This document shows positions 1-42,842 of a stretch of DNA of 64,000 nt, piece by piece (the stretch's first letter is position 1; each line of letters begins with the position of its first letter). The notes beneath the pieces are model-generated. The model was not told the DNA's origin. It did no database searches and was given only the letters and a program-made list of their open reading frames with translations. Position numbers and translations under genes: made by a program. Origin of the DNA: Cenarchaeum sp. (GTDB lineage: Archaea; Thermoproteota; Nitrososphaeria; Nitrososphaerales; Nitrosopumilaceae). The stretch lies in the NCBI GenBank assembly GCA_965242695.1, contig CBDESU010000001.1:1056001-1120000 (forward strand). The letters run 5' to 3'.

Positions 1-1809
1 CAACCCGAGGTGCCGGCAGGGGGAGGGGAGGAGTGGACAGGGGCAGAAGCCGGATCCTTTCCTGGGCCTGCCGGCTTCCGTCATCCGGCGCCGCTGCTAC
101 GTGCCCCTCCGCCGCCCGGGGGCATCCATGCCGGCTGCCTCCCCGCCGCCGGCGGCCCGTCGAGTATGTTCCAGCCGGGATCTCCAATGGCGTACGTCAC
201 GGCCCTGCCCAGCGACATGCCCCGCCTTCCGGCATTGGCCGCGATCGTCATCTTTCTCGACCCGACGACCATGCCGCGGTGCCCCTTGAACTGCACGTGC
301 GCATCCATGTACCGCTTTGCGACGTTGCGTATGACCCTCTCCACGTCGTTCGAGTGCGCCGGCATGCCGTCGACCTGCGTGTGGTAGAACAGGCACGGCA
401 TCGCATTCTCGTACCGCGTCCTGACAGGATGCTTGTCCCCGTACCCCTCGAGTATGGCGCACGCCGCGCGCTGCAGGGCGAGGGCCACGATCGGGGGCGC
501 CGTGTTGATGCACGAGCTGACCCTGTAGAGGCACAGGAGTTCAAAGTAGGTGGTCGAGTCCCTGCGATATCCGGCGATCTCGCCGGCGGTCGGCCTGCGC
601 CCCGACCGCGGCCGGGACTGCGGCGATGCAGCGGCGGCGCGATCCACGATTCCCGCAAGCCCTCCGCGCCGCGGCCGCCGGCCCCTTCCGGCCGCATCCT
701 TCTCCTCCCTCCTCCCACTCCTCCCCTTTTTCAGCGCAATGTCTCCAGCCCGCGGCGGCTGCGGGAGGGAGGCGGCGGGCGCGGCAGCATCAGGGGGGCA
801 GTAGGCGGCGGGCAGGATCGAGCGGATGGCCTTGACGGGGTCTTGGCAGTCGCTGCCGCCGCTGCCGCCGCCTCCTCCTCCTCCCTCGGCCGGCTCGACG
901 GACGGCAGCTCGGCGCCGTCCACCAGCCGGACGTCCGGATTGGACCTGATCATGTCGACGAGCGGGGGGATTACAGCCCTCTCGACGGCCCTGAACTCGG
1001 CGCCGGGATCTATGCCGGCCTCTTCGGCGTGGTCGCCGAAAAGGGTGAGCCACACGTAGACGGGCTCTTCGGCGCTGCGCAGGTTGTGCACCGAGTCGGA
1101 CTGCCTGTTCCCGTCGGGGTAGGCGCCGTGCTCGTCCGTGACCTTTGGGAGGCCCCAGATCGGGCCGAGCGCCTCTTCAAGCGACGCCGCAGACCTGCTC
1201 GGGGCGGCCGTGATCAGCACGGCATTGCCGCTGCACGCGGCCACGATGTACGCCCACTTGCCCATGCTGCGCGCCATGGTCTCGTCGATCACGGCGTAGC
1301 CATTGGCGCATATGCTCTCGACTATACGCGGGATCAGGTGGGCCGCGGCGTCCATGCTAGCCGACACGGCGTTGGCGACCGCATTCTCGGACACGTCGAT
1401 CCCGTAGTACCACCGGATGTAGTTGGCCGCATCCTGGTAGGACATGTGCTCGGTCAGGTCCAGCAGGCGCTCCCTGACGATCGCGCCGAGCGCCGTTCCG
1501 GGGATCGAGATCGGCGTGCTCGCCTTCCAAGGCAGCCCGCACGCCGAGCAGCAGCCGACCTCGAGCTTTAGCGCTACGGCGCAGCCTCGCCCGACGCCGC
1601 CGATCCGGACGGCCTCCCTGGCAAGGTCCTGCAGGCGCCTGCCCCTGCCGTCGGTCGCTTCAAACTCCAAGAGCCATCCTCCGATCAGGTCGTAGAGCCG
1701 CTTGACGGCGTACCCGATTACGACATAGTCGGCGCCGCAGCACCACGAGGGCCCAGTAGTTGCAGATGTGCCGCCACAATGCCCCCGTCGTGGCGGCCGG
1801 CCCTGCCCT

Positions 1810-3216
1810 CTACAGGGCAAAGAGCGGGCCGGCTGCGACCCTGGCCTTGGCCCGCTTTCTTGCAAGCAGCGCCGCCGTGGCCGCATCGGGGGTGAACAGC
1901 CGCGAGAACTCTTCGCAGGCCTCCGCCTCGTACGCGTCCTGTTCGCCCTTGCCAAGTATGGCCAGCCGCGTGGCCTCGGAAAGGAGTATGCGGCAGAAGT
2001 CCTTGTAGGTCATGGCGTACTTTTCCTTGTCCTTCCAGCCGTGCGTTCCGAGCCTGGGAGTCTGCACGTCTTGGATCGACTCGCCCTTCTTGGCCAGCCT
2101 CAGCGCCTTTAGCGCGCGGTCCGCCAGCACCCACAGGTTGGACGAGAGGAGCGAGTAGTGGAACAGGAACGTCCGTAGCGCCGGCGAGTTGCTGGTCGTC
2201 ATCGGCATTCCCTGCTCCGCCTCCCTGTAGCCGTTCTCGATGCGCTGCCGCTTCCTCATCTCTGCGCGCAGCATTGGAAGCGCCCTCCTCAGCATGGGGC
2301 GCGGCATGTTCGAGAAGAACGGCAGCGTGGTCTTTTTCGCCTTGCCGTCCCTGAACTCCTCGACCTCCCAAAAGGCGAGCGTGCCGGCAAACTTGCCCTT
2401 CTTGGACTTGACTATGTGCTCCGACAGGGCGGGGCGCTCGCCGCGCTCGTATTCGGCCATCGCCTTTTTGACCTTGGGCGTCATGCGCGCATACATCAGA
2501 AAGTACTCGCCCCTGTTGCCGAACTTGTTCATCGCATTCACGTTGTAGTACTCCCGATCGGCCGAGTAGTACAGGCAGAAGATGAGGCGCCTGGCGTTGT
2601 CGTCCAGGAGGTCCCCGACGTACTCGGACAGGGGGCGCCCCCTGCGCAGGATGCGCGACGACGTGTGGATCGTATACGGCCCCGAGACTATCGCCGACGA
2701 CACCGCGACGACAAAGGTCGACGTTCCGTTCTTGTACTTTGATCGCGCCGTGTAGTCGTCCCCCAGGTGCTCGCCGTAATACTCCATTTTGTGGCCGTCA
2801 ATCGAGCCTATCGGTCGCGCCGGGATCACGCCCGCCTCGCGCAGGGCCGCCACGGCGGCGTCGTCCACCGGCGCCCACCTTTCCTCCATGGCGTCGGGAT
2901 CGGGATCGGAGTTGATCAGCTCGCGCGCCCAGAGCGATGTCGGAGTGTCCAACTCGTCGATCCTCTCGATGCCGACCTGCCCGGCGGCCTCGATTGCGAC
3001 CAGTCTGGCCGCCTGGTGGCTGCACGAGCGATGCAGTGCTGCGGCCGCGAGGATGCTTGCAAATCCGGAAAGTCCGTGCAATGCATTGTAGCGCCTCGAA
3101 ATGGGAAAGTTGAATTTGGCCAGCAGGGCGTGGTCGAGCTTGAGCACGTTTTGCACAACGCGTATTGCATCGCGTAGTTCGTTATAGAACTTTCGCACGA
3201 TCCCCCCCCTGCACAA
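1810..3216 (-). CDS. DDE transposase (ISH3/IS4-like)
   Basis: SIDGHKMEYYG, SADREYY and RQRIENGYREAE motifs; lies inside the TIR-bounded element. Start codon uncertain. Confidence 0.85.
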   Translation of the reverse strand: MCRGGIVRKFYNELRDAIRVVQNVLKLDHALLAKFNFPISRRYNALHGLSGFASILAAAALHRSCSHQAARLVAIEAAGQVGIERIDELDTPTSLWARELINSDPDPDAMEERWAPVDDAAVAALREAGVIPARPIGSIDGHKMEYYGEHLGDDYTARSKYKNGTSTFVVAVSSAIVSGPYTIHTSSRILRRGRPLSEYVGDLLDDNARRLIFCLYYSADREYYNVNAMNKFGNRGEYFLMYARMTPKVKKAMAEYERGERPALSEHIVKSKKGKFAGTLAFWEVEEFRDGKAKKTTLPFFSNMPRPMLRRALPMLRAEMRKRQRIENGYREAEQGMPMTTSNSPALRTFLFHYSLLSSNLWVLADRALKALRLAKKGESIQDVQTPRLGTHGWKDKEKYAMTYKDFCRILLSEATRLAILGKGEQDAYEAEACEEFSRLFTPDAATAALLARKRAKARVAAGPLFAL

Positions 3217-3308
3217 GGCTTGCTTAAATCAGTTATGAACAAGTTGTCCACATTTGTAGGCCAATTGAAATTCGGGAAAGTGTTGGCAGTGCTTGCGATT
3301 GCAATTGT

Positions 3309-3418
3309 GTGTTTGCCGGATGTGTTTGCCGGATGTGTTTGCCGGATGTGTTTGCCGGATGTGTTTGCCGGATGTGTTTGCCGGATGTGTTTGCCGGATG
3401 TGTTTGCCGGATGTGTTT
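3309..3418. repeat. 13-bp tandem repeat (GTGTTTGCCGGAT) x8 plus a partial copy, upstream of the transposase inside the IS
   Basis: Eight perfect copies read directly at 3309-3412. Confidence 0.97.
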
Positions 3419-3970
3419 TGTTGGGTGCTCGACCACCCGATCGGCAAGTGTAGATTAGATCGTTTTGACAACAACCGCGGAGCGGCGCATCACCGTGCTG
3501 GCCTGTTGCGCAGGCCGAACCACGAGCACATCCAACCACATCTGCACCATGCCATGCGCGACGTACTGCGAGGAATGCGCGCAATGCGCGCGGCGCGACG
3601 GCGAGTCCGACATGCGGCACTGGCCGCGCCGCGCGGCGCTAGCCTGTCTGGGCCGCCCTCCTCGCAGGCCCGCCCGCTGCAGACGAGCATCGCCTGTGGG
3701 ATTGCCGCAAATCGTCATGCGGCCTTGATCTCGATCTCGGCGGTGCCCTTGCCGCCACCGGGCAGATGCCGCCGGCTGGGCCCCGAACGGCCCGGTACGG
3801 CGACCGCTACCTACCGGCGCCGCAGGCGCTGTGCGATCGCACCCTCACCGAGCACATCTGCAACTACTGGGGCCCGAGCGGGACGGCCAGGGTGCACTCG
3901 GTCTTTGTGCTGTTCGACTTTCCCGGGCCGCGGCGGCGGCGGCGGCGTCTGGAGGGCGCCGCCGGTTCCG

Positions 3971-4077
3971 CCACCGCCGCCGCCTGGGATTCGGCCCCCT
4001 TTTTCCTCAAGGTGCTGACCGCGCTGCGAGTGGACGGCAGCCCACCGCCGCCGCCTGGGATTCGGCCCCCTTTTTCC
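3971..4077 (+). repeat. Putative ectopic CRISPR spacer integration 1: 36-bp duplication with 35-bp insert
   Basis: CCACCGCCGCCGCCTGGGATTCGGCCCCCTTTTTCC at 3971 and 4042 (identity runs to 38 bp); period 71; frameshifts the IS66 transposase; shares CGGCCCC at positions 22-28 with the minus-strand CRISPR repeat. Confidence 0.75.
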
Positions 4078-5056
4078 TCCCCATCCTCCCTGCCGACGCG
4101 CCGCCGCTGTCGCCGCCCCTCTGCCGGCTCCCGCTTCCCTCCGATCCCCGCTCCGGCGAGTCCGCGTTCTTGTCCCTGCCGCCGCCGCTGCCGCCGCTGC
4201 CGCCGCCCCTCCGCCTGCCGTCGTCCCCCTCGTTGTACGATCCGATCTTTGCGCGCAGCCTGTCGCGCTCCCTGTGGCATATCGCCCGCGACGAGGTCGG
4301 GCTGTTGGGGTTTTCATGGCGCCGGAGCAGGGTGCGCATGCCCTCTACATCCTCCTCGAGCCTTCTGCATCTTTCCGACAGCTCGGCGCTCGTACCGGCC
4401 GAGGTGGCCAGTGCCGTCTTCTGCAGGCGGCAGGTGATCCTCAGGCCGTCCCGCTCCGCGGTGACCTCCGACAGATTGGACACAAGCTGACGGATGGTCT
4501 CGTTGAGGGTTTCCGTCTCGGCGTCATGCCTGCGGTGCACATTCGCAAGCTCCCTGCGGAGCAGGGTGACCTCGGACGGCGATCCCATGGCCGCGCGCCG
4601 AACCAATTTGATCGATAAAGGTTTGGATCCTTGGCGCCAGGTTCGGGTGCCCGGCGCCGCCGAACTGCCGCAGCCGCGGCATGTCGTCGGCAGGCTGTGC
4701 CAGCGCACCTGCCGCCACCTGCAAGCAGCCTCGCCCCCCCCCCCCCCCCCCCCCCCCGTCAGGCGTCAGTGGCATGGGTGAGACCTGAGCTCTCGCTACA
4801 TGAGGGCATCTGGCGTGCACATTCAGGTCGGGCATACGTTGCACGCATTGGAGGGGGTGGTGGCGGTAAGACGCAGTTGACGACGGAGGCCAGAATGTCT
4901 ACCAGCTGGTGTACGATGCCCGACATCCATTGTCACTAGACAGAAATGCGAGCGGCGGGAATTTTGCTCACGTGTTGGACTAAACACCGGGCCCACATGG
5001 ATGCATGGACTGGGGGCAGGGCAGGTGCGAAGTGGATAGCGCAGGCTTACCGTCCA

Positions 5057-9840: not shown

Positions 9841-9867
9841 TGTTCGGTGTCGTCCCGACCACGTGCG

Positions 9868-12000
9868 CTACGTCCTGGCATGTTTGGTGTCAGACTTCGG
9901 CTTTTCAGGTGACGGGACAAAGATGCCGAGTCCAAAGTGGGAGTTGTTGCCGAGTAAGAGAGGGCCCTTGAAGGATGCCCCGAATGAGATTTTCACTCGG
10001 CTAGCGGCGCCGTGCGGTCTCGCCTTGCCGGGCCGCGCGGCATCAAAAGTGCGGGCCGGCATGCGGCGCGATCCTGCCCGTATCACTGCACCCGCCTCGT
10101 GTTCTATGCGTACTGCATTCCTGTAGTGGTGGTTTTCATCCAGCTCCTTTTCTATCTGCTCTGGCACGCCAAAGTTCTTTTTTGCGTGCCGCGACGTATA
10201 GTACGGCGTGGCAGTCGTCCAGATCTTGCTTTCCTTGAACAGGATACACCTCTTGCCCATGTCCGCTGCCCCGTAGAAGCCGTCAAACCGTATGCGGGCA
10301 ACGGACGTATGCCGGTCGCGGACATCTGTTGTGGCCTGAAACGCGCGCCTTGTCGATGGTTCAAGTCCATATTTTGCATACACCGCGATGTGGTCTATCA
10401 GCCCGTCGCCGTCGTTGTCGACAGGCAGCCAGAACGCGTGGGAGTGCCCCGTGCGAAGGGGCCTGCCCGCATCGTCGTGCCCCGACAGCGACTGGGGCAG
10501 GCGGCCACCCCTGTACAGGCGACCCGCCTGTGACATGACCGCGGCCCTCACCGCTCCCGCAACCTTTACCGTCCTTTCAACCGGCGGGCGCTTACCGACC
10601 ACCTCGTAATATGCAACTTCGGGCAGCAGTGCAGGTGCCAGCAGGCCGTTACCACGCCTCGTGCCGGAACCTAGCAGCAGTGGGCCTGACACGGGGGCTC
10701 TGAACTCGATCTCTGCGTACCACAGGTTCGAGTCGTGGCCGATTTTCTCTAGGCCATCCCAGTCAGGGATCTTGTCCAGCCTTATCGACATGACAGAGTT
10801 CTTCAAGCCCCTGTCGGCAAGTTCGTCCAGTATGGACTTAGCCGCACTGCGCTTGTCGCCCGCCGAGCCGTCCGCATCCCCAGGATCAAGCGGCGTGGTC
10901 GAGCGCCACACGGTCGACCTGCGCACGTACCTCCTGGCCACACTGTCGTTATCAGGAGAAGGAACTAGCTGGAACCGGATCCCGCCAGCCTCGACAAACT
11001 TCGAGTTGATGCGGGCCAGAAGGCGATCCCGTTCAGGGACGCCCATTGACGGGGGAATTATCACTCCTACTCGCCTGACCATCGCATCAGAGTTCTGGTG
11101 TCCTATGCTGGGCATGGCCACGATCGAAGCGCAACCCAGTTTAGGGCCACACATGTCGTGCAGCCTGGCGGCCAGATCTGCAACCGCAGTGCGCGGGACA
11201 AAGCGCCTCGACTCAGTGTCGCTCAGCATGAACGTCACGAGCTTGGCCCTCGGCGCACCGCCCTTCCTGTACCCCCAGCTAGCTTGGTGCGTAATTGGCC
11301 CTGGCTTTACAAACCCCTTGGCGGTGACCTGCTCGAGAAACTCGGCATGCCTCCTTTTTGCATCGCCAAGCATGCCAGCGAGCGGTACATCAATCTTTAG
11401 TTCCGCTTGGCCGGTACCGCCACCGCCACCACCGTCGTTTGGCAGGTACTCCTGCGCCCCGGCAAGCGGTGACAGGGTGTCGGCCAGCATGCCGTTTACC
11501 GCCACGGGATCTATCCCCAGTCCCAGTACCGGCACCTCGCGCGCCAGGTTGCACAGCAGACGAGCCGCCGCGCGGCTGTCCCCACCATCGTCGGGAGCCA
11601 GCGTCCAGGAGTATCTCACTGTGCTTGCAATGTACGGCGCCATTTTCTTGGAGGTGGTGTACGCCCTCGGGTCCCGCGTGGACACGCCTTGCTTTGCATA
11701 GTCCTTTGATATCACATCCATGTCGTTGTTGGGCACGAAGATTATGTACTCTTTTCCCTTCGCCCCTCGAGCCTCGATCCGCGGCGGCCTTTGTCGCTCT
11801 AGGTATTCAAGCGCCCGATCGGCCTCGGCAACGTTGAACCGGCCTGACGGGCTCTGGTAGAGTGCCGCGACAAGCGCGAGAAAGAGCCGGCGTGGCGACG
11901 GAGGCCACTCCGCGCCATGGTACCGCTCAAGGAGAAAGCGGACGTCAATGACGAGGCGTGCCCCGTCTCCGGCCGGCAGTTCCTGCTGTTGTGACGGCAC
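9868..12000 (-). CDS. csb2: Type I-G Csb2 (Cas5/Cas6 fusion), long form of about 710 aa with two Cas6-like C-terminal domains
   Basis: N-terminal YHGAEWPPSPRRLFLALVAA and YIIFVPNND; two W.(S/T).TP ... GPLLLG....G.G motif sets. GTG start at 12000 inferred from the csb1 stop at 12032. Confidence 0.88.
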   Translation of the reverse strand: MPSQQQELPAGDGARLVIDVRFLLERYHGAEWPPSPRRLFLALVAALYQSPSGRFNVAEADRALEYLERQRPPRIEARGAKGKEYIIFVPNNDMDVISKDYAKQGVSTRDPRAYTTSKKMAPYIASTVRYSWTLAPDDGGDSRAAARLLCNLAREVPVLGLGIDPVAVNGMLADTLSPLAGAQEYLPNDGGGGGGTGQAELKIDVPLAGMLGDAKRRHAEFLEQVTAKGFVKPGPITHQASWGYRKGGAPRAKLVTFMLSDTESRRFVPRTAVADLAARLHDMCGPKLGCASIVAMPSIGHQNSDAMVRRVGVIIPPSMGVPERDRLLARINSKFVEAGGIRFQLVPSPDNDSVARRYVRRSTVWRSTTPLDPGDADGSAGDKRSAAKSILDELADRGLKNSVMSIRLDKIPDWDGLEKIGHDSNLWYAEIEFRAPVSGPLLLGSGTRRGNGLLAPALLPEVAYYEVVGKRPPVERTVKVAGAVRAAVMSQAGRLYRGGRLPQSLSGHDDAGRPLRTGHSHAFWLPVDNDGDGLIDHIAVYAKYGLEPSTRRAFQATTDVRDRHTSVARIRFDGFYGAADMGKRCILFKESKIWTTATPYYTSRHAKKNFGVPEQIEKELDENHHYRNAVRIEHEAGAVIRAGSRRMPARTFDAARPGKARPHGAASRVKISFGASFKGPLLLGNNSHFGLGIFVPSPEKPKSDTKHART

Positions 12001-12031
12001 TTCTAGCGACAATAGACTTCGCACCCGCCGG

Positions 12032-13078
12032 CTACTTTTTCTTCTTGGGCTTGCTCTTGGAGTCTTCAAGCTCCTTCTTCGCGCTCGCCAGCTGGAATGT
12101 CGCATCATCTCCTTCGCCCACGCCGAACGACTTGGCCGCGGCCTCTGCAAATGCCACTGCCTCGTCAGGATCAAGCGATACGGCATCCCTTCGACCGTCA
12201 GGATGGACGGCTTCCCACGACGGAATCCCCTTTTCCGAGTCCCTAGTAAGGTTGCAACCCTGGCGAAGATACAAATCGGTGGCCTTCGTCGCAGCCACCA
12301 GCGCAAGTCCCAGTATATACTTGCGGAGGGAGGAGGCGTCGATGCTACTCGACAGCCTGCGCAGCGCGACCAAGTTCACCACCACATCCCTGCGGATGCC
12401 GCCCCTTGCGATGACTCCCCCCGGCTGCCCTGTAGCAGGCGCCTCATTGAATCCATACTCTGACCTCGTGTCGTTCTCGGCAGTGTTAGTGATTTCCCCC
12501 AGCAGATCATCCTTCCTGTAGTCGACAGGCGGGAAGTACTGCGCCGAACGGCTCAGCTCGTCTATGTCGTACGCCCTGATCACGGACGAGATGATCCTCG
12601 GCGCCTTTACCTGCGTGTTGCGCGAGTCCCAGACCCCGAACAGCAGCGATGTCGGGGCCACCTTGGCAAGGGCGCCAGCATCGCCCGATGTCTTGTAGGA
12701 CTGTAGCGCCTCGCGGATGCGTCCGTACACATCCGAGTGCCTCAGCAGTGCATCACCCGCCCTGTGCCCAACCTCGCACAGGTTCACCTTTTGCTGGCCT
12801 GCTGTGATCGTAATCTGTGGTATAAGTCCTCTGTAGCGTCCCTCCATGAACAGCGGCTCCATGCGGTTTGCCTGCGACCCGACGCTGTCAACGAGGCACA
12901 TCTTAGTCCCGTCCTGCAGCGTGTCTATGCAGTACGAGCTCCCGTCGGATCCCGTCCCGGCATACGTGGGCGGGAAGAACGGCTCGCCGGCGCCCTCCAC
13001 CGGCACCAGATGCTCCCTCATCACCAAGGCCGACGGGCCACCCTCGACCCACGCCCCGGCATCCTCGGACAGCCCCAT
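12032..13078 (-). CDS. csb1: Type I-G Cas7 backbone protein (Csb1)
   Basis: FFPPTYA, LVDSVGSQANRMEP, HRAGDA, PTSLLFGVWDS and LRQGCNL. ATG start at 13078 chosen; the ORF extends to 13096. Confidence 0.92.
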   Translation of the reverse strand: MGLSEDAGAWVEGGPSALVMREHLVPVEGAGEPFFPPTYAGTGSDGSSYCIDTLQDGTKMCLVDSVGSQANRMEPLFMEGRYRGLIPQITITAGQQKVNLCEVGHRAGDALLRHSDVYGRIREALQSYKTSGDAGALAKVAPTSLLFGVWDSRNTQVKAPRIISSVIRAYDIDELSRSAQYFPPVDYRKDDLLGEITNTAENDTRSEYGFNEAPATGQPGGVIARGGIRRDVVVNLVALRRLSSSIDASSLRKYILGLALVAATKATDLYLRQGCNLTRDSEKGIPSWEAVHPDGRRDAVSLDPDEAVAFAEAAAKSFGVGEGDDATFQLASAKKELEDSKSKPKKKK

Positions 13079-13079
13079 G

Positions 13080-13817
13080 TCAAACCGGCGCCTCACGGGA
13101 CATATTAAAGGCTTTGTTGGCGCCGCTCCGCCCCGTCCAGAACTCGAACTTCCGGTGGGCTAGGCGCCCAATCGCCCCACTTGCGACGGCGGCCGCAACC
13201 GTCATGGGTAGAGGCTCGCCCCATGTGTAGTAGGCATAGTGGCCCCGCTCGACCTCCCTCCAAGAGTACGACTGCACCCCCACATGGGCAAAGAACTCTA
13301 CAAGTGGGTACGTCCGCATTTCCTTCATCCCCTGCTCGTTGAGGCTAAAGCCGACATCCTGCGCAGTCCATCGCGTGGCGGCATCGATGCCGGACGGGAG
13401 GCTGACCGTCGAAAAATCCGTCCATGTGGACAGCCCGCCCCCCCTCTGACAGTACGCGTTCAAGAGGCGCGCCCACCGCTCCACCAGAGGCTTCGACCTG
13501 ATCTGCCCCGCGAACAGCTTGATTGTCGGCCTGTCGTCAAAGTGGTTCCAAAAGTCCAGCCGCAAACGGACGTCGTCGATGGTCACGGGCGAGTCCGCAT
13601 CGTCGGTCTCTGCTCTGACCGAGCCCGAGCAGTCCTTGAGTCTGCGTATCACGGAGATTGCCGGGTCGGGTTCGGCCGCGCGCAGGACAAACCGATCCCC
13701 ATCAAAGTGCCCCACGGCATCCCCGAGCAGATGGTCGGCGCAGTACAGTATGCCGCAGCATGCAAAGAACTGTCCGGGATTGCGCAGGTCTGTCGCAATA
13801 GTGGATGAGGCTGTCAT
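13080..13817 (-). CDS. cas8g: Type I-G large subunit, short Cas8g (Csb3/Cas8u1-like), 245 aa
   Basis: NPGQFFACCG N-terminal motif, YPLVEFFAHVG; located between cas3 and csb1 with ATGA coupling to cas3. Confidence 0.8.
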   Translation of the reverse strand: MTASSTIATDLRNPGQFFACCGILYCADHLLGDAVGHFDGDRFVLRAAEPDPAISVIRRLKDCSGSVRAETDDADSPVTIDDVRLRLDFWNHFDDRPTIKLFAGQIRSKPLVERWARLLNAYCQRGGGLSTWTDFSTVSLPSGIDAATRWTAQDVGFSLNEQGMKEMRTYPLVEFFAHVGVQSYSWREVERGHYAYYTWGEPLPMTVAAAVASGAIGRLAHRKFEFWTGRSGANKAFNMSREAPV

Positions 13818-16420
13818 TGGTCGCCGGCCCCCTGCTTCTCCGATGCCTGCCAGTCGGCCCCGCGCAGCAGTCCCTCAAGCCAGGCAAGGCCCCACGCGCC
13901 GAACTTCTTTTGCAACGAGGCATACCTCCCCATTACAAGTAGGTGCTCGCTGTCGGCCGCGTCGATCGTTGCATTGGAGTTGAAGCAGGGGCGCGCCCAG
14001 CCGTGGTGCGCGGCGATCAAGTGCAGTACAAGATCCTTCTCCGGATGCCCGTCGAGTGAACCTGCAATCCTTCGGATGGACTCGAATTCGTGCCTGAACC
14101 CGCCCAAACTCAGGGGGCGCCTGCGCGAGGCAGTCTTTGCAAGCGGATCGTTTGCGTTGCCATGCATGCATTCCTGCCAGTGGGGGTGCGACTTGCCCAG
14201 GTCGTGGTATTCCGCCGCCGTGACTATGGCATCGGCCAGGTTGCCGTCTAGCCCCAGGTTGGAGACGATTGATTTAGCCGCCGCCTTGACATCCGCGTGG
14301 TGATCGCCAAGCCGCCGCTCGCTGGACGATGCGGAGTGCTGTCCAGCGGACCTTGCCACATAGTAGCGCAGCTCCTTGCTGGGCGCATCGTAGTCCATCT
14401 CGTCCGCGGAGCTTGTCACTACTGCCGCCGACATCTTCATGTCCGGGTGATTTGCCAGCCACTTTCCCAAGTCGTCCCCGTCGTCAAAGCCGTCTTGATC
14501 ACCGTCCAGCGTGACGCTGCCGTCGCCCCAAACCGCCACTTCGACCCTCATGCGGTTCCTATACTGGTCGTCGTCGGCCACATCGGGTACGCGGCGGTTC
14601 GAGTGTGCTAGCATCCCATCCTCGTTCAGCCCCCCCGCTTCGCAAGGCAACAGGAGTGTGGAGTAGTAGAGGTCGTCGTCGGCGATCTCGCCGATCGTCT
14701 TTACGCGTACAGTGCCGTCCCGCCGTCGAATTATGGCCTTTAGGCCGGAATGCTGGGCGGTGATTTTTTCCAGTATTTTTCTCACGTTCGGCGTCAAGTC
14801 ACGGGCCATTTCATGTGGAAGGAGTGGGTAGAGGTCTAGGACATCCTCTATCACACCCTCGTCCTGGCGGGCCAGTGCCCCCGCATCGCGCCTCCATGCC
14901 ACGTGTGTTTCGGGAACCTGATGCTTGTCGTGGCCGCGCAGCCAGTGATGGACTGCGGGCCGGGCAGGAAGCTCGGCAAGCGAAGTCATGGACCACATGT
15001 CGACGATGTCCGGCGTCAGCGGCTGCGTGTCGGGCACAGGAGATAGCATGTCGGATGTAGCCTGCGCGTCCAGTATGGGCGACAGGTTGCGCGGGCTTGC
15101 ATTGAAAGGCCCATCTGCGACGAGGCGCTTGAGCAGTCCCAAGGACGCGCAGAGGCGCTTCGACGCCCCCTTGTTCTTTTTAATGGCGTCATCCGAGTAT
15201 ACCACTACCGCCCTTGACGATCTGCCTCCGCTGCGGTTTACCCTCCCAAGCCGCTGAACAAGCGAGTCGATGGTAGAAATGTCGGACACCATGTCGTCGG
15301 CGTCAAGATCTGCTCCTACCTCCCCCGCAGATGTAGATACGAGGTAGCGCTGAACTCTGCCACCATCGGAAGCAGGCTTTGTAAACATGGCGAAGACGCT
15401 GGCGGGCGAGGCAGACTCCGCATCTAGAGAGGGGTCCCGTGTTGAGTGTTTTGGTGGTCGTGATGCCCCCGAGTCCGTATCTTTTGCAATGCCGCCGCTC
15501 GTCAGTGTGTCCCTCTCAAATCCGCGCAGTGTGCCAGTAAGGGTAGCTACTTTCATGCCCGCATCACGGAGTTTCTGTGCAATTGCAAGAGCCATGGATG
15601 GTTTCTGTACGTATACGAGCGTCTTGCCCGTCATTTTGAGTGCCTCTGTTGCGATTGCATCCAGCAAATTGGAGTCCCCCGCATCGACCAGCTCGAGGGT
15701 TTTTTTTGCATCATAGCGGTCGCATACTGCTTTGTGTTTCAGATCACTTTCGTCCAAGGATAAAACATTTTCTTTTTCATCGGTGTGGATTGTTGCAGAC
15801 ATTAAAAGGACTCGAGGGGGATAGATTTTCGTAGGTACAGAACCGGAGATCTTTTGTAAGTCTAAAAGGGAGCGTTTAAGTGCGGGGGACAGGTGTGTTT
15901 CGTCGAGTATGATCAGCGAGTCCTGTCCCATGAGTCCTGCATAGAACGGGCGGATTTTGCCCCCAAGTCCATAGCCTGAAAAGAGCAGCCGGCTACCAAC
16001 CATGTCAACAGTCCCTATCACTATAGACGGTTTGTCGGGATGTCGCATCCAGTCACGGCTGTCGGCCAAACCACCTCCTCCGCGAAATGTGCTGATGTAG
16101 GGAGTCAGTGCGAGGGAGTCAGAACCATTTATGTCATCAATGCGGTGCTTAATCTTGACTAGCATCTCGGATGCCTGATCCACAATGACCCTCCGATCTA
16201 CTATGTAAAGCAATCGACGCGGAACACGGACCGCGTGGCCCGACGATGACGTGTGTGAGAGCGCAATAAGCCATATGAGGATGACGGACGTCTTACCCAA
16301 TCCCGTTGGAATGTCAAGGACATCGGGCACATCACCCGTAATCAACCTAGAGTATAGACGATCTTGCCACGGGTACGGCTGATGGCCAGTTATGCGACAG
16401 AACGCCTCTTTAAAGTCCAC
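13814..16420 (-). CDS. cas3: Type I-G Cas3 helicase with C-terminal HD nuclease
   Basis: PYPWQ, PTGLGKT, VDRRVIVDQ, DETH, SAT, QRLGRVNR; C-terminal HDLGK...FRHE...AHHGWARP. Confidence 0.96.
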   Translation of the reverse strand: MDFKEAFCRITGHQPYPWQDRLYSRLITGDVPDVLDIPTGLGKTSVILIWLIALSHTSSSGHAVRVPRRLLYIVDRRVIVDQASEMLVKIKHRIDDINGSDSLALTPYISTFRGGGGLADSRDWMRHPDKPSIVIGTVDMVGSRLLFSGYGLGGKIRPFYAGLMGQDSLIILDETHLSPALKRSLLDLQKISGSVPTKIYPPRVLLMSATIHTDEKENVLSLDESDLKHKAVCDRYDAKKTLELVDAGDSNLLDAIATEALKMTGKTLVYVQKPSMALAIAQKLRDAGMKVATLTGTLRGFERDTLTSGGIAKDTDSGASRPPKHSTRDPSLDAESASPASVFAMFTKPASDGGRVQRYLVSTSAGEVGADLDADDMVSDISTIDSLVQRLGRVNRSGGRSSRAVVVYSDDAIKKNKGASKRLCASLGLLKRLVADGPFNASPRNLSPILDAQATSDMLSPVPDTQPLTPDIVDMWSMTSLAELPARPAVHHWLRGHDKHQVPETHVAWRRDAGALARQDEGVIEDVLDLYPLLPHEMARDLTPNVRKILEKITAQHSGLKAIIRRRDGTVRVKTIGEIADDDLYYSTLLLPCEAGGLNEDGMLAHSNRRVPDVADDDQYRNRMRVEVAVWGDGSVTLDGDQDGFDDGDDLGKWLANHPDMKMSAAVVTSSADEMDYDAPSKELRYYVARSAGQHSASSSERRLGDHHADVKAAAKSIVSNLGLDGNLADAIVTAAEYHDLGKSHPHWQECMHGNANDPLAKTASRRRPLSLGGFRHEFESIRRIAGSLDGHPEKDLVLHLIAAHHGWARPCFNSNATIDAADSEHLLVMGRYASLQKKFGAWGLAWLEGLLRGADWQASEKQGAGDQ

Positions 16421-16687: not shown

Positions 16688-19600
16688 GCTTCAATGGGGC
16701 CGCAACTTGACAGTTGCGGAAGGCGTCTTGTGGGTCCACACGACCGGCGGCATCGCCATGCTTCAATGGGGCCGCAACTTGACAGTTGCGGAAGGGCTCG
16801 TCCGAGGCAGTCTCTTCAACCGTCAGCCTGCTTCAATGGGGCCGCAACTTGACAGTTGCGGAAGGCCTCAAGAGGAGTGCGACGACCCATGAGCGGCCGG
16901 CTTCAATGGGGCCGCAACTTGACAGTTGCGGAAGGGCCGCCTTGCTGTTTTCGGATTCGCTCCTCGTCGGCGCTTCAATGGGGCCGCAACTTGACAGTTG
17001 CTGAAGGCTTGCGCCTGCCGTCCTTGGCCCGCTTGCCGCCCCGGCTTCAATGGGGCCGCAACTTGACAGTTGCGGAAGGCTTGCGCCTGCCGTCCTTGGC
17101 CCGCTTGCCGCCCCGGCTTCAATGGGGCCGCAACTTGACAGTTGCGGAAGGCCCGCGCAAGCCCAAGCCCAAGCCCAAGCCCGCGCGGCTTCAATGGGGC
17201 CGCAACTTGACAGTTGCGGAAGGAGTCGTGCAGGCTGGCGGCAGTGGCGTCGGGGTCGCTTCAATGGGGCCGCAACTTGACAGTTGCGGAAGGCTCGACG
17301 GCGCTCGGCGCGCGGTACTCGTAGGCTGGCTTCAATGGGGCCGCAACTTGACAGTTGCAGAAGGCGTTGCCGCCATGCGCCGCCCCCTCAACGTGGCGTT
17401 GCTTCAATGGGGCCGCAACTTGACAGTTGCGGAAGGACCATATCATTTTCCTTAAACAAAAGATCATCCTCTAGCTTCAATGGGGCCGCAACTTGACAGT
17501 TGCGGAAGGCGACTACCCCAAGACGACCCTCAAGGCCAAGCCCTTGCTTCAATGGGGCCGCAACTTGACAGTTGCGGAAGGGATGGCCTCTTCAACGCCG
17601 ATTTTCAGCCCGTTAAGGCTTCAATGGGGCCGCAACTTGACAGTTGCGGAAGGCGCGTACAGGGACAAGCTGGCGCGCCGGCGCCGCCTGCTTCAATGGG
17701 GCCGCAACTTGACAGTTGCGGAAGGCGGAATCTACGCATGGCAGGCGGGCCAAGCCGGCAGCTTCAATGGGGCCGCAACTTGACAGTTGCGGAAGGACGG
17801 CAGCCGCCCTCCCGCCGGCGAACCCTGGCACGTGGCTTCAATGGGGCCGCAACTTGACAGTTGCGGAAGGGAGGCCGAGCAGCGCGAGTTCGACGAGGAC
17901 GAGGAGGAGCTTCAATGGGGCCGCAACTTGACAGTTGCGGAAGGTCGTACCCCATTGCCGGCGGGCGCAGACGGACCGGGCTTCAATGGGGCCGCAACTT
18001 GACAGTTGCGGAAGGCCCGCCATCACGCCCGCCCCCCACCGGGGGGGGTAATGCTTCAATGGGGCCGCAACTTGACAGTTGCGGAAGGAGTACATCCGCT
18101 TCCTGCACACCGTACACCGCATCCCGCTTCAATGGGGCCGCAACTTGACAGTTGCGGAAGGTCGCCCAGCAGCAGGGCGGCGAATATTGCGTGATATGGC
18201 TTCAATGGGGCCGCAACTTGACAGTTGCGGAAGGCGAGGGCCACGCCGACCCCGCCGCCGTCGCGGCATGGCTTCAATGGGGCCGCAACTTGACAGTTGC
18301 GGAAGGCCCCCAGGAGAAGATCCAGCGCCTAGAGGAGTATGCGCTTCAATGGGGCCGCAACTTGACAGTTGCGGAAGGACGGGGGCGGGGAAACAGGGGC
18401 GGCGGCGACAACGGCTTCAATGGGGCCGCAACTTGACAGTTGCGGAAGGCTCGCAAAGGCGGCTATCCAAGCCGAAATAGATCGGCTTCAATGGGGCCGC
18501 AACTTGACAGTTGCGGAAGGAGAAGAACGACGACAGCCGGAGCGATCCCTGATGATCGCTTCAATGGGGCCGCAACTTGACAGTTGCGGAAGGCAGGCCG
18601 TCCTCGGGCGCCGTCCACGACTTGTCGACGCTTCAATGGGGCCGCAACTTGACAGTTGCGGAAGGGTGACGGGCCCCTTGCTCATGCTCGCGATGGGACG
18701 GGCTTCAATGGGGCCGCAACTTGACAGTTGCGGAAGGCCGGGCCGCGCGCGGCATGCCCGACGAAGACCTGGTGCTTCAATGGGGCCGCAACTTGACAGT
18801 TGCGGAAGGTCGCAATCGGCACCGTATTCATATCCCGCACGTCGCTTCAATGGGGCCGCAACTTGACAGTTGCGGAAGGAGGAGCTCCGCCTCCTAGAGC
18901 GCTCCGACGAGGATCGGCTTCAATGGGGCCGCAACTTGACAGTTGCGGAAGGGTCGTCCTCGATCGACCTGGGCCCCGACCAGACCCGGCTTCAATGGGG
19001 CCGCAACTTGACAGTTGCGGAAGGCGTGATCTCGGACGACGAGGCCGCCCGCATCCTGGCGGCTTCAATGGGGCCGCAACTTGACAGTTGCGGAAGGGGC
19101 GGGGCTGACCAAGCCCAAGCCCGACCAGGCCGCGCTTCAATGGGGCCGCAACTTGACAGTTGCGGAAGGTTCTTCCTGGGCGGCGGCAGGGGCGGCTTGT
19201 CTTGCTTCAATGGGGCCGCAACTTGACAGTTGCGGAAGGGGCACCCGTGAGGCCCGTCTCGGTATGGAACTGATTGCTTCAATGGGGCCGCAACTTGACA
19301 GTTGCGGAAGGTCCTTTGCATGGAACGGCAGGTGCGCATCGACCAGCGGCTTCAATGGGGCCGCAACTTGACAGTTGCGGAAGGATCATGACCGAGCCGC
19401 GCGTGAACGCCAGGCGGTACGCTTCAATGGGGCCGCAACTTGACAGTTGCGGAAGGAATCTGGCTATTGCGCCAAGTAAAGGCCCCGACTGGGCTTCAAT
19501 GGGGCCGCAACTTGACAGTTGCGGAAGGTATCCCCCCTGCACGGCCGCCCATGCCCCGGGCTTCAATGGGGCCGCAACTTGACAGTTGCGGAAGGCCCAC

Positions 19601-22600
19601 ATTCCGACCACACCTGCCTAGAGTGCGGCATCGCTTCAATGGGGCCGCAACTTGACAGTTGCGGAAGGGGGGAGCGGATCGGCCGAATCATGCAAACAGA
19701 GGCGGGCTTCAATGGGGCCGCAACTTGACAGTTGCGGAAGGCACCTGCCGTCCCGCGAGATACCCGCCGCCGACGCCGCTTCAATGGGGCCGCAACTTGA
19801 CAGTTGCGGAAGGACGGTCCTGCCGTGGGTGCTTATCGTGGTGGCGTAGCTTCAATGGGGCCGCAACTTGACAGTTGCGGAAGGCCGGCCTCACCTGCCG
19901 CAACGACATCATCTGGCGGCTTCAATGGGGCCGCAACTTGACAGTTGCGGAAGGCGGCGGCCCTGTCCGTGTACCCGGCGAATTCGTCAATGCTTCAATG
20001 GGGCCGCAACTTGACAGTTGCGGAAGGGGGGACGTCGCAGGCAGGCAAGGCATGGAGGCGCAAGCTTCAATGGGGCCGCAACTTGACAGTTGCGGAAGGC
20101 TCCATACAGAAGGGCGGAATCAAGCGGGCTATAAGCTTCAATGGGGCCGCAACTTGACAGTTGCGGAAGGTCTCGCAGAATGTCATTGCCGCGCCGTTCG
20201 GTGTCAGCTTCAATGGGGCCGCAACTTGACAGTTGCGGAAGGTTATAAGGCCCCGCGCACGGCGCCCCCCTGATGACGGCTTCAATGGGGCCGCAACTTG
20301 ACAGTTGCGGAAGGCCAGCACGGCCACGGCCAACACGGCAATGACACCCGCTTCAATGGGGCCGCAACTTGACAGTTGCGGAAGGCACTATGTAGCGCGT
20401 CATGCGGCGGCCCCGATTCATGCTTCAATGGGGCCGCAACTTGACAGTTGCGGAAGGCCGTGTCTTTGGCTTCGCCGTCATCCCAAGCGTGGCTTCAATG
20501 GGGCCGCAACTTGACAGTTGCGGAAGGCGTATCAGTAGAGTCTCGGCAGGGACGTTCCGAGGGGCTTCAATGGGGCCGCAACTTGACAGTTGCGGAAGGT
20601 TCAGTCAACTCGTTCTTTATCGGCGAAATCCGCCAAAGCTTCAATGGGGCCGCAACTTGACAGTTGCGGAAGGGTCGGCGCTTATTGTGGATACTGAAAA
20701 GACGGGCAGGCTTCAATGGGGCCGCAACTTGACAGTTGCGGAAGGATGCATGGTTTGCGCCGCTAATAGATCCTATGGTGGCTTCAATGGGGCCGCAACT
20801 TGACAGTTGCGGAAGGCGCCGCCCGCCGGAGACGAAGGTCTTGCGGACAATTCGCTTCAATGGGGCCGCAACTTGACAGTTGCGGAAGGCCGCAAACTCA
20901 AACTTCTGCCCCTTGCGGGAAACGTTGCTTCAATGGGGCCGCAACTTGACAGTTGCGGAAGGCGCCCTAAAGCCGGCCGGCAACTACGTGCTAGTGATGC
21001 TTCAATGGGGCCGCAACTTGACAGTTGCGGAAGGGGCTCGCGCCGGCCGCTAAAGAGGCGGGCGTGGTGAGCTTCAATGGGGCCGCAACTTGACAGTTGC
21101 GGAAGGCGCCCGCCCGTGCATGGGGGACAAGCATACGGCGATGCTTCAATGGGGCCGCAACTTGACAGTTGCGGAAGGCGCCGCGTCGGCCGTCACGGAG
21201 ATGCGCCACGACGGCTTCAATGGGGCCGCAACTTGACAGTTGCGGAAGGCCGAGTACGTTTCCCATGCGAGGCACCCGACGAGGATGCTTCAATGGGGCC
21301 GCAACTTGACAGTTGCGGAAGGCGTCAAAAGCGGCGCCCGGATCCCTGATTTGCGAGGGGCTTCAATGGGGCCGCAACTTGACAGTTGCGGAAGGCGTAT
21401 CAGTAGAGTCTCGGCAGGGACGTTCCGAGGGGCTTCAATGGGGCCGCAACTTGACAGTTGCGGAAGGTTCAGTCAACTCGTTCTTTATCGGCGAAATCCG
21501 CCAAAGCTTCAATGGGGCCGCAACTTGACAGTTGCGGAAGGGTCGGCGCTTATTGTGGATACTGAAAAGACGGGCAGGCTTCAATGGGGCCGCAACTTGA
21601 CAGTTGCGGAAGGATGCATGGTTTGCGCCGCTAATAGATCCTATGGTGGCTTCAATGGGGCCGCAACTTGACAGTTGCGGAAGGCGCCGCCCGCCGGAGA
21701 CGAAGGTCTTGCGGACAATTCGCTTCAATGGGGCCGCAACTTGACAGTTGCGGAAGGCCGCAAACTCAAACTTCTGCCCCTTGCGGGAAACGTTGCTTCA
21801 ATGGGGCCGCAACTTGACAGTTGCGGAAGGCGCCCTAAAGCCGGCCGGCAACTACGTGCTAGTGATGCTTCAATGGGGCCGCAACTTGACAGTTGCGGAA
21901 GGACCCATCGACGATGGGCTTCAGGGCGAAGACTGGCTTGCTTCAATGGGGCCGCAACTTGACAGTTGCGGAAGGTGGCATACCGTCTTTTCGCCCGTCG
22001 TCGCTTGCGGCGCTTCAATGGGGCCGCAACTTGACAGTTGCGGAAGGCAAAGTCCTTCTCCCCGAAGACGTCAAAGTACTGATCGCGGCTTCAATGGGGC
22101 CGCAACTTGACAGTTGCGGAAGGATCAACCAAGTTCCCGCCCGCTCGATAGACCTTTGCGCTTCAATGGGGCCGCAACTTGACAGTTGCGGAAGGCTGCT
22201 ACCTCGCGTTCCGCAAGTTCGGCGAGCCGTCGCTTCAATGGGGCCGCAACTTGACAGTTGCGGAAGGTGACTGGGTACAACGCGGGGGGATCGACCGATG
22301 CGGAGCTTCAATGGGGCCGCAACTTGACAGTTGCGGAAGGACGTCCCGGTGGCGCCCAGGTCATACAGGGGGCGGACAGCTTCAATGGGGCCGCAACTTG
22401 ACAGTTGCGGAAGGTCGAATGGCGGAGGCCCCGATCGTCAACTTTGCCCTGCTTCAATGGGGCCGCAACTTGACAGTTGCGGAAGGCTCCTAGACGCCAT
22501 CCAGGCCATCCGCATCGCCACGCTTCAATGGGGCCGCAACTTGACAGTTGCGGAAGGTACACGAAGTCCGCAGGGACGGAACGGGCCTCTTCAGCTTCAA

Positions 22601-25600
22601 TGGGGCCGCAACTTGACAGTTGCGGAAGGCGCCGAGTACCCGCACCGCCGCCGCCGCCAGAAAACCCAGCTTCAATGGGGCCGCAACTTGACAGTTGCGG
22701 AAGGCGTCATGTACGGGTTTTCGGGCGTGGCGAACAGGTCGCTTCAATGGGGCCGCAACTTGACAGTTGCGGAAGGACGGGAAATGACGGCGGAGCAGAA
22801 GGCGGAAAACGCTTCAATGGGGCCGCAACTTGACAGTTGCGGAAGGCGCGCAGGTGTCCGGCGCCGAGTGGGAGCGGGCCAAGCTTCAATGGGGCCACAA
22901 CTTGACAGTTGCGGAAGGCCGCGCCTTGAACGCCTTGCTTGTACCTTGCCGGAAGCTTCAATGGGGCCGCAACTTGACAGTTGCGGAAGGACCAGTCGCA
23001 GTATTCGGAGGGGGGCGGACCGCCGGCTTCAATGGGGCCGCAACTTGACAGTTGCGGAAGGGCGCGTGGGGAGGTGAAGGCAACGCCGAAGATCTGAGCT
23101 TCAATGGGGCCGCAACTTGACAGTTGCGGAAGGCGCCGCCGGCGAGAGGCGCGAGGGCGCGGGCAGCGCTTCAATGGGGCCGCAACTTGACAGTTGCGGA
23201 AGGGGCGCAAGGCCGAGGGCGTCCGGCGGTACAAGGACGCTTCAATGGGGCCGCAACTTGACAGTTGCGGAAGGCCGTGCTCGGCCGCGCCGGCACGTTT
23301 CGATACGACGTGCTTCAATGGGGCCGCAACTTGACAGTTGCGGAAGGGTCGGATTTGCGCCCGACGAGTTGATTTGCGCATGCTTCAATGGGGCCGCAAC
23401 TTGACAGTTGCGGAAGGGCGGGCGTCGTCGGCAGGGGCGTTGGCGGACCGGGCTAGCTTCAATGGGGCCGCAACTTGACAGTTGCGGAAGGACGAATCCG
23501 CGGCGGAGCCTGACGAGGGGCCTGCGGAGCTTCAATGGGGCCGCAACTTGACAGTTGCGGAAGGATCGTCGGGGTTGACCCAGCGGCCGGACTCCTCGTC
23601 GCTTCAATGGGGCCGCAACTTGACAGTTGCGGAAGGCTGCGCGAGTTCCTAACGGCGCTCGGCGTCGACACCGGCTTCAATGGGGCCGCAACTTGACAGT
23701 TGCGGAAGGGGCCTTTCCGAACAACCAGAACCAAAGTCAGGCCATGCTTCAATGGGGCCGCAACTTGACAGTTGCGGAAGGCGTCCCGTCGTACAACGCG
23801 CAGACGGGCGCCAACCTCGAGCTTCAATGGGGCCGCAACTTGACAGTTGCGGAAGGCGTCCCGTCGTACAACGCGCAGACGGGCGCCAACCTCGAGCTTC
23901 AATGGGGCCGCAACTTGACAGTTGCGGAAGGCCTTGAGCGCGCCGACGATCGCGATGGCGGTGGCGTCGCTTCAATGGGGCCGCAACTTGACAGTTGCGG
24001 AAGGGGGCTGCACATGCTCGGCGGCGTATTTCAGATTCAGCTTCAATGGGGCCGCAACTTGACAGTTGCGGAAGGTGCGCGGCCGGGATTCGCTGTGGCA
24101 GTGTATGTGCGCTTCAATGGGGCCGCAACTTGACAGTTGCGGAAGGACCCGTCCGCGAGCGTCGCGGCCCTCGCCGACGCGCAGCTTCAATGGGGCCGCA
24201 ACTTGACAGTTGCGGAAGGTCGGCGGCCGTGCGATCGCCGTCCTTTGCGCTCGCGCTTCAATGGGGCCGCAACTTGACAGTTGCGGAAGGCCCTAACATA
24301 CTCGCATTGAGGGGCCTGCCGTTTATCGCTTCAATGGGGCCGCAACTTGACAGTTGCGGAAGGGGTCGGACGATACGGCATTGGGTGCGAAATAGACCCA
24401 GCTTCAATGGGGCCGCAACTTGACAGTTGCGGAAGGCTACTACCATGCCTCCCTGTGCCTGCTGGCGCTGCTGCTTCAATGGGGCCGCAACTTGACAGTT
24501 GCGGAAGGCTCACCACCCCGCCTCCCGCACGCGAGCCCGACCCCGCTTCAATGGGGCCGCAACTTGACAGTTGCGGAAGGGCCGACACCGTGCTGGTGGC
24601 CGCCGCCCGCAGGGCCGCTTCAATGGGGCCGCAACTTGACAGTTGCGGAAGGATGTGGTTTCTGCGAAATCCAGAAACCGGAATCGAAGCTTCAATGGGG
24701 CCGCAACTTGACAGTTGCGGAAGGTCCGGCGGTATTCATCCCGCACGGCAATAAACTCCGCTTCAATGGGGCCGCAACTTGACAGTTGCGGAAGGTACCC
24801 TGCCGACGACTGGGATATCCCGCTCGCCCGGCTTCAATGGGGCCGCAACTTGACAGTTGCGGAAGGCCGATGATGGACCGCATCGTAGCAGAGGGCGGTG
24901 ACGCTTCAATGGGGCCGCAACTTGACAGTTGCGGAAGGACGTTGACCATGGTCTATGGCTCAAAAGACGGCGGCGCTTCAATGGGGCCGCAACTTGACAG
25001 TTGCGGAAGGCTGTATCCGGCTTGGTGCGGCCCCACTTGTACGGCTTGCTTCAATGGGGCCGCAACTTGACAGTTGCGGAAGGGGGGTCGTGCTGCTTCG
25101 AGGACGCCGACAACGGCTTGCTTCAATGGGGCCGCAACTTGACAGTTGCGGAAGGATGCCGCAGGGCGCCGGGCGGGGGGCCGCCGCGAGCCGCTTCAAT
25201 GGGGCCGCAACTTGACAGTTGCGGAAGGAAGATGCGGCGCGAGAAGGAGCGCAGGAAGATGGACGGCTTCAATGGGGCCGCAACTTGACAGTTGCGGAAG
25301 GAGGCAAAGTCAATACTCGATGCATACAAGGAATACAAGCTTCAATGGGGCCGCAACTTGACAGTTGCGGAAGGCGCAACGTCTGCCAGTACTGCAAGCG
25401 CGCCCGGCCGGCTTCAATGGGGCCGCAACTTGACAGTTGCGGAAGGCGCCACGCTCGACGCCGTACGCAAGTACGTCGATCCGCTTCAATGGGGCCGCAA
25501 CTTGACAGTTGCGGAAGGGTGCTGGTCGTCGTCCCAGATGGGCCGCTCGGATCCAGCTTCAATGGGGCCGCAACTTGACAGTTGCGGAAGGGCCTGCTCG

Positions 25601-40404: not shown

Positions 40405-40602
40405 CCTGCGACGGACAACCATTTGTCCGCAGCTCGGCCGGCACAGTGATCATATGTGGGCTTTGGCTCCTGCTTGCCGTGTTTTTGCATTCAGTCGCGG
40501 TGGCGCCATCTCCGGCATTATAAGCAGGCGGCGAGCGCCCCAGGGGCCGAACCCCCTCACCGGGCCGCTCGCGCGCCCCCGGCGCCACCGCCCCCGATCG
40601 CA
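40405..40602 (-). promoter_or_regulatory. CRISPR leader with TATA-like box (TTATAA at 40518-40523)
   Basis: Non-coding region between the cas2 stop and the first intact repeat. Confidence 0.75.
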
Positions 40603-40905
40603 TCATACGACAAACGACGGCCTCCTTCCCCCGCCCGGCTGCAGCTTCACGCCGATCGTCTCTATGCGCCCGTCCGATGCATCCCCGTACGAGGGGCCCA
40701 CATCGACGACCAGCACCCTGTCCTGGGCGTAGTCGAGCAGGTCGGCAAGGTCCTCGCGGAGCCCCGTCAGCTCTATCCGGCTCAGGTCGCAGGCGAACAC
40801 CGAGTACTGCATGCGGTCGCCGTACCCGAGCATGGTCTTATAGGTCTGCTGGCGCCGCTTTGAATCCGCCACATCGTACGCCACAATGTACCTGTTCCGC
40901 GCCAT
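40603..40905 (-). CDS. cas2: Cas2
   Basis: YIVAYDV...GYGDRMQYSVFACDL...DRVLVVDVG. Confidence 0.96.
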   Translation of the reverse strand: MARNRYIVAYDVADSKRRQQTYKTMLGYGDRMQYSVFACDLSRIELTGLREDLADLLDYAQDRVLVVDVGPSYGDASDGRIETIGVKLQPGGGRRPSFVV

Positions 40906-40921
40906 CCGCACCCACCGCGCC

Positions 40922-42703: not shown

Positions 42704-42805
42704 GCCGCCCCTTCGCGCGCGCGGACCTAGTGCGCGGCGCCAAATGCGGTTGACGCCGTGGTGAGGAAAAGTTGACAGCGCGCGGCTGCCCCGCACCACA
42801 CTACA

Positions 42806-42825: not shown

Positions 42826-42842
42826 CCGTACAGCCCGCCCCC

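Follow-up and report, generated by a model that had tools for sequence, protein, structure and literature searches.

An IS66-like transposase gene of a Cenarchaeum sp. (genome G000, whose two contigs are called C1 and C2) carries 71 extra bases, and these very probably result from off-target (non-canonical) spacer integration by the type I-G Cas4/Cas1-Cas2 complex of the same genome. The site lies in the window, a stretch of 64,000 nucleotides of C1 that was analysed as a whole (Table 1). The extra DNA has the dimensions of a unit of the array, it is missing from the other copies of the element, and it places a stop codon in the transposase frame. The core of this reading, an ectopic spacer with a repeat-length duplicated target in an IS66-like transposase gene, had been put forward in an earlier note made from the sequence; it is now supported by empty sites, by the period, by a genome-wide family of similar sites, and by a peak that appears only in genomes with Cas1. 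We infer that Cas4/Cas1-Cas2 was the agent from this family, from the inserts it contains, and from its restriction to Cas1-bearing relatives. Because the 71-bp site is joined by dozens more here and in two sister species, the CRISPR integrase seems often to act off-target in nature.

The site consists of a duplicated target (X) on either side of an insert (Y). The earlier note described identical copies of 38 bp with 33 bp between them, which repeat finding confirmed (100% identity, period 71). It also divided the 71 bp into 36 + 35 and let the site end at position 4077; its start at 3971 was right, while that end fits the 36-nt reading and the exact run goes on to 4079. The division is compatible with the data, but the true duplication may be 36–38 nt and not strictly 36, and events of known source give 35–39 nt. 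An exact duplication of 38 nt in place of 36 means either that two bases match by chance or that the spacing is not measured strictly. The DNA beyond copy 2 bears no resemblance to Y; the structure is therefore X-Y-X rather than a tandem pair of complete units. X does not have the 8-bp hairpin of the CRISPR repeat when the two sequences are compared, so the locus would make no crRNA. Two other full copies of the IS66-like element were found by BLAST (C2:627666-630224 and C2:384269-386826; 91–96% identity), and both (2/2) have a single X and no Y, with three extra bases of a CCG-type run in X.

Table 1. Coordinates of the features discussed, in positions of the window unless a contig is given.
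Feature	Position	Strand	Remarks
IS66-like element copy	1..4796	-	left end ~310 nt before the window, C1:~1055690; 17-nt terminal inverted repeats
Nested ISH3-family IS	1755..3869	-	2115 bp; inverted repeats 1749-1771 and 3852-3874 (23 nt, 96%)
Nested IS transposase ORF	1810-3216		within 1755..3869; NF033541 64.9 bits, below cut-off 225
Copy 1 of duplicated target (X)	3971..4008	.	38 nt exact; 100% identity to copy 2
Insert Y, spacer-like	4009..4041	.	33 nt; 33-35 nt if 1-2 bases of X are Y's
Copy 2 of X	4042..4079	.	exact match to copy 1; start-to-start spacing 71
Truncated IS66-like transposase frame	4007..4588	-	MGSPSE start at 4588; TGA 4009-4007; 193 aa
csb2/cas5-6	9868-12306	-	TIGR02165 219.6 bits (cut-off 45)
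csb1/cas7g	12032-13096	-	TIGR02570 142 bits (cut-off 38)
cas8g2	13080-13817	-	111.2 bits, just below cut-off 125
cas3g	13814-16420	-	TIGR02621 602.7 bits (cut-off 400)
CRISPR array	16688..40404	-	330 repeats of 36 nt; spacers 31-40 nt, mode 36
Leader	40405..40602	-	198 nt between cas2 and first repeat
cas2	40603..40911	-	TIGR01573 35.6 bits (cut-off 24.5)
cas4/cas1 fusion (Cas4g/Cas1g)	40922..42883	-	NF049935 688.3 bits (cut-off 560)
Second event	48056..48162	.	X 36 nt (1 mismatch), insert 35 nt, period 71
Third event	63653..63753	.	X 29 nt (1 mismatch), period 72

The CRISPR repeat quoted in the earlier note is real, with 330 copies at ≤3 mismatches where none is expected, and the array is the sole place in the genome with this repeat, 12.6 kb from the 71-bp insertion. 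Its spacers are of 31 (1), 33 (1), 34 (30), 35 (77), 36 (121), 37 (66), 38 (28), 39 (4), and 40 nt (1), which gives a period of 71 in 77 of the 329 units and of 70–74 in 322, with the mode at 72. On the minus strand the order is cas4/cas1, cas2, the 198-nt leader, and the array, and degenerate repeat remnants are present at the low-coordinate (trailer) end. The genome has only one Cas1 match, the Cas4g/Cas1g fusion, which is an intact open frame with Cas2, likewise an open frame, adjoining. Judging from profile matches, the system is of type I-G (I-U): the Cas4/Cas1 fusion, Cas3g, Csb1, Csb2, and Cas2 are above their cut-offs and Cas8g2 is just under, and the interference genes together span 9868..16420 on the minus strand. 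The host was identified as an archaeon with the archaeal SSU model (1450 bits), and the stretch is present in sponge-metagenome runs.

The 71-bp site is not alone. Both contigs were scanned for isolated direct repeats (a 28-nt window with ≤1 mismatch, unlike flanks at that offset, sequence not of low complexity, array excluded), and the hits were filtered uniformly for X ≥28 nt, an insert ≥27 nt, and no 10-mer common to the insert and its surroundings. The whole genome then gave 4, 6, 21, 28, and 9 isolated X-Y-X sites at offsets 69, 70, 71, 72, and 73, 68 in all, as compared with 18 sites at the 87 control offsets (55–66 and 76–150), or about 0.2 per offset. The peak is sharp and stands at the array's own period. 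Between sites, the X and Y sequences bear no relation to one another, nor are they related to the spacers of the array. At 9 of the 68 sites a paralogue aligns straight across without the insert, as is the case for the second and third events in the window, whose paralogues without the insert are at C1:1123013-1123404 and C1:1118497-1118811, respectively. At C2:173437-173650, X is present three times with two different inserts between the copies, at periods of 72 and 71, which makes this locus a two-spacer array that arose away from the CRISPR locus. Clustering near the cas locus was looked for in 200-kb bins, which show no clear excess around 1.06–1.12 Mb.

The same kind of site was found in relatives. 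Among the five genomes of the genus, Cas1 was found in three (G000, G002, and G004), always in frames of fusion length, and not in G001 or G003. G004 has the same repeat as G000, with at least 231 copies in the 40 kb examined and an array mode of 72–73, and a 360-kb sample of it yielded 11 events at offsets 70–73 with a flat distribution. G002 has a variant repeat, with at least 265 copies in the 40 kb examined and an array mode of 71, and its 360-kb sample yielded 18 rows (17 loci) at offsets 70–73. No event was seen at offsets 55–80 in 400 kb each of G001 and G003, in which no Cas1 was found. Thus a peak of the 69–73 type is present in 3/3 Cas1-bearing and 0/2 Cas1-free genomes sampled, a correlative result among kin that are not independent, in which the Cas1-free genomes are smaller and of lower G+C content (51–58% vs 67–71%). 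The ectopic mode tracks the array mode (71/71 in G002 and 72/72 in G000), and the density of events is about one per 20–57 kb across the three species. The Cas1-bearing genomes are of 3.2–3.9 Mb and the Cas1-free ones of 1.8–2.0 Mb. Each of the three Cas1-bearing species has very large arrays, to judge from the 330 repeats of G000 and the minimum counts given above for G004 (231) and G002 (265).

In the mechanism that we propose, the integrase would be the only one of its kind in the genome, the Cas4/Cas1 fusion with Cas2, whose genes lie beside the 330-repeat array at a distance of 37 kb. A prespacer of 33–35 nt would have been joined to both strands of the IS66-like gene at points 36–38 nt apart, and gap filling would then have duplicated the stretch between the two joining points. 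The gene was presumably struck by accident rather than recognised as part of a mobile element.

The agent could also be another integrase or the repair of a break, in which a double-strand break with staggered overhangs of ~36 nt was filled and a stray fragment ligated into it without any action of Cas1-Cas2. Such an origin is improbable, even though a structure of duplication and filler names no enzyme by itself and most of the captured fragments have no PAM. The lengths of stagger and filler match the array's own unit and move with it between species, the peak is restricted to the three Cas1-bearing genomes among those sampled, and we know of no other enzyme that gives duplications of 35–39 nt.

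Replication slippage, or a tandem duplication that diverged later, is more doubtful still. The genome is rich in tandem repeats, which would suit this origin, but a 71-nt tandem unit would repeat Y, and the DNA after copy 2 bears no relation to it; the flanks of the site at offset 71 are only 20–23% alike, Y is absent from the other copies of the element, and in 12 of the 68 events of the genome-wide family Y comes from a distant locus.

Frameshifting is common in IS transposases, and the 71 nt might belong to the transposase gene itself, perhaps as a region of programmed frameshifting, or else be the footprint of a small mobile element. We give this hardly any credence. An intact copy of the element with the same 71 bp would have spoken for it, as the earlier note pointed out, and the two other copies (2/2) do not have them and are read through as one frame, an unbroken protein of 759 aa on the minus strand. 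Against a small-element footprint, Y has neither inverted ends nor a second copy in the genome.

The low-complexity, GC-rich DNA around the site might raise the suspicion of an assembly artefact, which we consider next to impossible, for Logan contigs of runs X8 and X9, built independently although from what may be the sample from which the genome came, reproduce 3979-4071 (X8) and 3979-4078 (X9) with zero differences and cross both X|Y junctions, and the same class of event occurs in separately assembled sister species. In these two runs the exact filled variant has a depth of ~90–140, as for single-copy DNA, and the paralogue variant ~266–478, a ratio of about a third. A further contig spans the ISH3/IS66 junction at 3870. 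Runs X1 and X2 contain only the uninterrupted empty paralogue form, and they leave 3941-4033 uncovered, so they are uninformative on the filled copy.

Off-target integration of a spacer would account for one IS copy being dead. There are three full copies of the element in the genome in addition to partial ones, and their 17-nt ends, read by eye, are mutually inverted. The 759-aa paralogue matches PF03050 (DDE_Tnp_IS66) over residues 313-429 with 30 bits against a cut-off of 23.1, and this covers profile positions 19-144 of 284 only; the NCBIfam IS66 model NF033517 gives 47.7 bits, far under its cut-off of 180. Because the first match is partial though above threshold and the second is below threshold, the element is named IS66-like. 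A search for relatives with a fragment of the IS returned only distant homologues, of ≤72% identity (in G004), and no orthologous copy. In the window's copy the frame is closed by a TGA placed right on the X|Y junction, before the DDE region is reached. The earlier note had calculated that removing the 71 bp and the nested IS restores a frame of 772 codons, and its arithmetic was right: in silico, once the 71 bp and the nested IS (2115 bp) were both taken out, the frame stayed open for 773 residues starting at MGSPSE, and taking out just one of the two did not restore it. Its statement that the adaptation machinery had inactivated a mobile element directly holds as far as the stop codon and the 193-aa product are concerned, but it is overstated, because an ISH3-family IS is nested in the same copy and either insertion could have been the first. 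Nor does anything in the data suggest that the IS66-like element was targeted, as that wording implied.

Some further features of this copy may be mentioned. A perfect 13-nt tandem repeat of 8.5 copies (TGTGTTTGCCGGA) lies at 3308-3418, within the nested ISH3-family element, and a run of 24 C lies at 4734-4757, upstream of where the transposase frame begins on the minus strand. Another X-Y-X site, with a period of 71, occurs ~300 nt left of the window at C1:1055703-1055808, where the copy has its left end. This event is less clear-cut: at this point the C2 copies show a single X without Y, yet they are short of ~100 further nt as well.

The targets are G+C-rich (76.5% as compared with 67.5% for the genome), and the duplication, taken on each strand, begins with G at 59% of 106 edges in G000 against a background of 34%, and at 28 of 56 edges in G002 and G004 together. 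Likeness to the repeat is slight. The target of the site at 3971-4079 shares 17 of 36 positions with the CRISPR repeat, and CGGCCCC stands at positions 22-28 of both, as the earlier note had seen and as was verified by hand and by script. Its description of the target as repeat-like is weakly supported, by these identities and by the in-register motif. For the 68 targets the mean best identity with the repeat was 13.5, as compared with 12.9 for random 38-mers, and an earlier test had shown almost no shift (14.8 vs 14.4 identities). In-register runs of at least 7 with the repeat were found in 6 of the 68 events and in 1.4% of random 38-mers. CGGCCCC occurs five times among the 68 X of G000, always at offsets 20–24 and three times at 22, as in the repeat; this register was not replicated in the sister samples, since the motif had 0 occurrences in the 11 events of G004 and was found twice in G002, at offsets 16 and 17. 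We therefore regard the register as a lead and not as a rule. No leader-like or host-factor motif was identified at the ectopic targets.

Only 3 of the 68 targets are coding-like as judged by the period-3 amplitude of G+C, a measure that is not comparable between genomes differing in G+C content, whereas 57% of 3000 random windows are. GC3 proved useless as a gene caller in this genome. This sparing of coding-like DNA could be due to purifying selection or to a preference of the enzyme.

Where the inserted DNA comes from could be established for other sites of the family. For Y itself no source was found in the genome, the genus, viral_contigs, metagenome_contigs, phages, or plasmids: the site itself is the only occurrence of its 33-nt core in the genome and of the 35-mer in the window, there is no match in the five genomes of the genus at ≤3 mismatches, a 27-mer of it is absent from viral_contigs and from metagenome_contigs, and phages and plasmids gave only chance matches of 20 nt (E 0.2–0.5). 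For 12 of the 68 inserts, a match of 30–38 nt with 0–4 mismatches exists elsewhere in the same genome; some of these matches are perfect (38/38, 37/37, 34/34, and 31/31), and the rest have 1–4 mismatches. The source alignments imply a captured fragment of ~32–38 nt and a duplicated target of ~35–39 nt, and the site at 3971-4079 (33–35 + 36–38) falls within the range of these source-known events.

This proportion of self-derived DNA, 12/68 among ectopic inserts, compares with 2/329 among array spacers, which gave two perfect matches and one partial match to the chromosome only, and the whole array had no match among phages. The spacers at 34347-34381 and 39675-39712 match C2:698844-698878 and C1:975632-975669 perfectly, and both have TAA directly 3' of the protospacer in crRNA orientation, that is, TTA on the wrong end. 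We infer that these two spacers are flipped and therefore harmless, with no self-targeting. Since so few array spacers have matches, the PAM rests on two cases and the literature. At the sources of the ectopic inserts, TTN or NAA was present at the edge in at most 2 of the 14 alignments inspected. Three sources of self-derived spacers lie within 8 kb of the sole cdc6/orc1 gene, namely C2:698844 (an array spacer) and C2:700567 and C2:706047 (ectopic), and this gene is flanked by both PolD subunit genes. The region of C2:698–707 kb may be a hotspot of capture at a replication origin, although it was noticed post hoc and the numbers are small.

Off-target integration by Cas1-Cas2 was shown in the type I-E system of Escherichia coli with overproduced enzyme, where it generated 'neo-CRISPR' loci (Nivala, Shipman and Church 2018, cited in PMC7054753, PMC9456107, PMC6698737, bioRxiv 10.1101/148544). 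As far as these accounts go, the events are of the same kind as ours, a spacer-sized insert with a repeat-length target duplicated outside the array, and the second spacer at C2:173437-173650 belongs to the same likeness. The E. coli events were reportedly rare, arose with overproduced Cas1-Cas2, and lay near IHF-like motifs, whereas those described here are fixed in wild archaeal genomes and belong to subtype I-G with a Cas4/Cas1 fusion. In a 2018 preprint, the natural evidence is called 'circumstantial' and concerns two other species, and it is left unclear how common such events are in nature (bioRxiv 10.1101/148544).

Cas1-Cas2 of Pyrococcus furiosus was likewise reported to integrate off-target on plasmids in vitro (PMC6698737). 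Paired points at repeat-length spacing away from an array, a preference for G, and partial likeness to the repeat are common to both systems, while purified proteins, plasmid DNA, and a spacing of 30 nt contrast with natural chromosomal sites, a spacing of ~36–38 nt, and a weak likeness here (PMC6698737). The Cas4/1-Cas2 of Geobacter sulfurreducens (I-U/I-G) uses the PAM TTN, which 50% of the unique spacers had (PMC6547450). Its fusion belongs to the same family as ours (NF049935) and 36-nt spacers predominate in both; of the array spacers here, the two that match their own chromosome have TTA, on the opposite side. In G. sulfurreducens only integration into the array was reportedly scored (PMC6547450), and the source-known ectopic spacers here are mostly without TTN. 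'Ectopic' acquisition in Streptococcus thermophilus also takes place away from the leader-proximal repeat, but its targets are reportedly true internal repeats of the array, unlike the unrelated chromosomal sequences found here (PMC7999890). Our literature search, which covered main texts, turned up no description of a natural genome in which off-target integration events abound. The mechanism is of a known kind; new are its frequency in nature, its occurrence in this subtype and in an archaeal host, and inserts that are self-derived and largely without a PAM.

On balance we lean towards the wider view that an integrase that feeds giant arrays (at least 230–330 repeats) in a sponge-associated genus acts as a chronic, low-fidelity insertional mutagen. 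Because the scattered units would not be expressed as crRNA, they would escape autoimmune selection, and they would then form an unselected fossil record of capture (self-derived, mostly PAM-less, and clustered at cdc6/oriC), with some sites firing again. If the off-target reading of these sites holds, the natural error rate and the mutational cost of CRISPR adaptation become measurable, as do the intrinsic target preferences of the Cas4/Cas1 fusion and a spectrum of capture that is free of selection by interference. There would also be a concrete route to new arrays, whose possible natural birth the re-fired two-spacer locus would show.

Two further features of the window lie in the neighbourhood of the cas genes. 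A gene with an Mrr_cat restriction-endonuclease domain is present at 6689-7870, in the interval that separates the cas genes from the IS66-like copy. Directly beside csb2, another IS at 8305-9841 has a weak DDE_Tnp_1 match and inverted repeats at 8306-8328 and 9818-9840, and at least four further copies of it, with 84–99.7% identity, occur in the genome.
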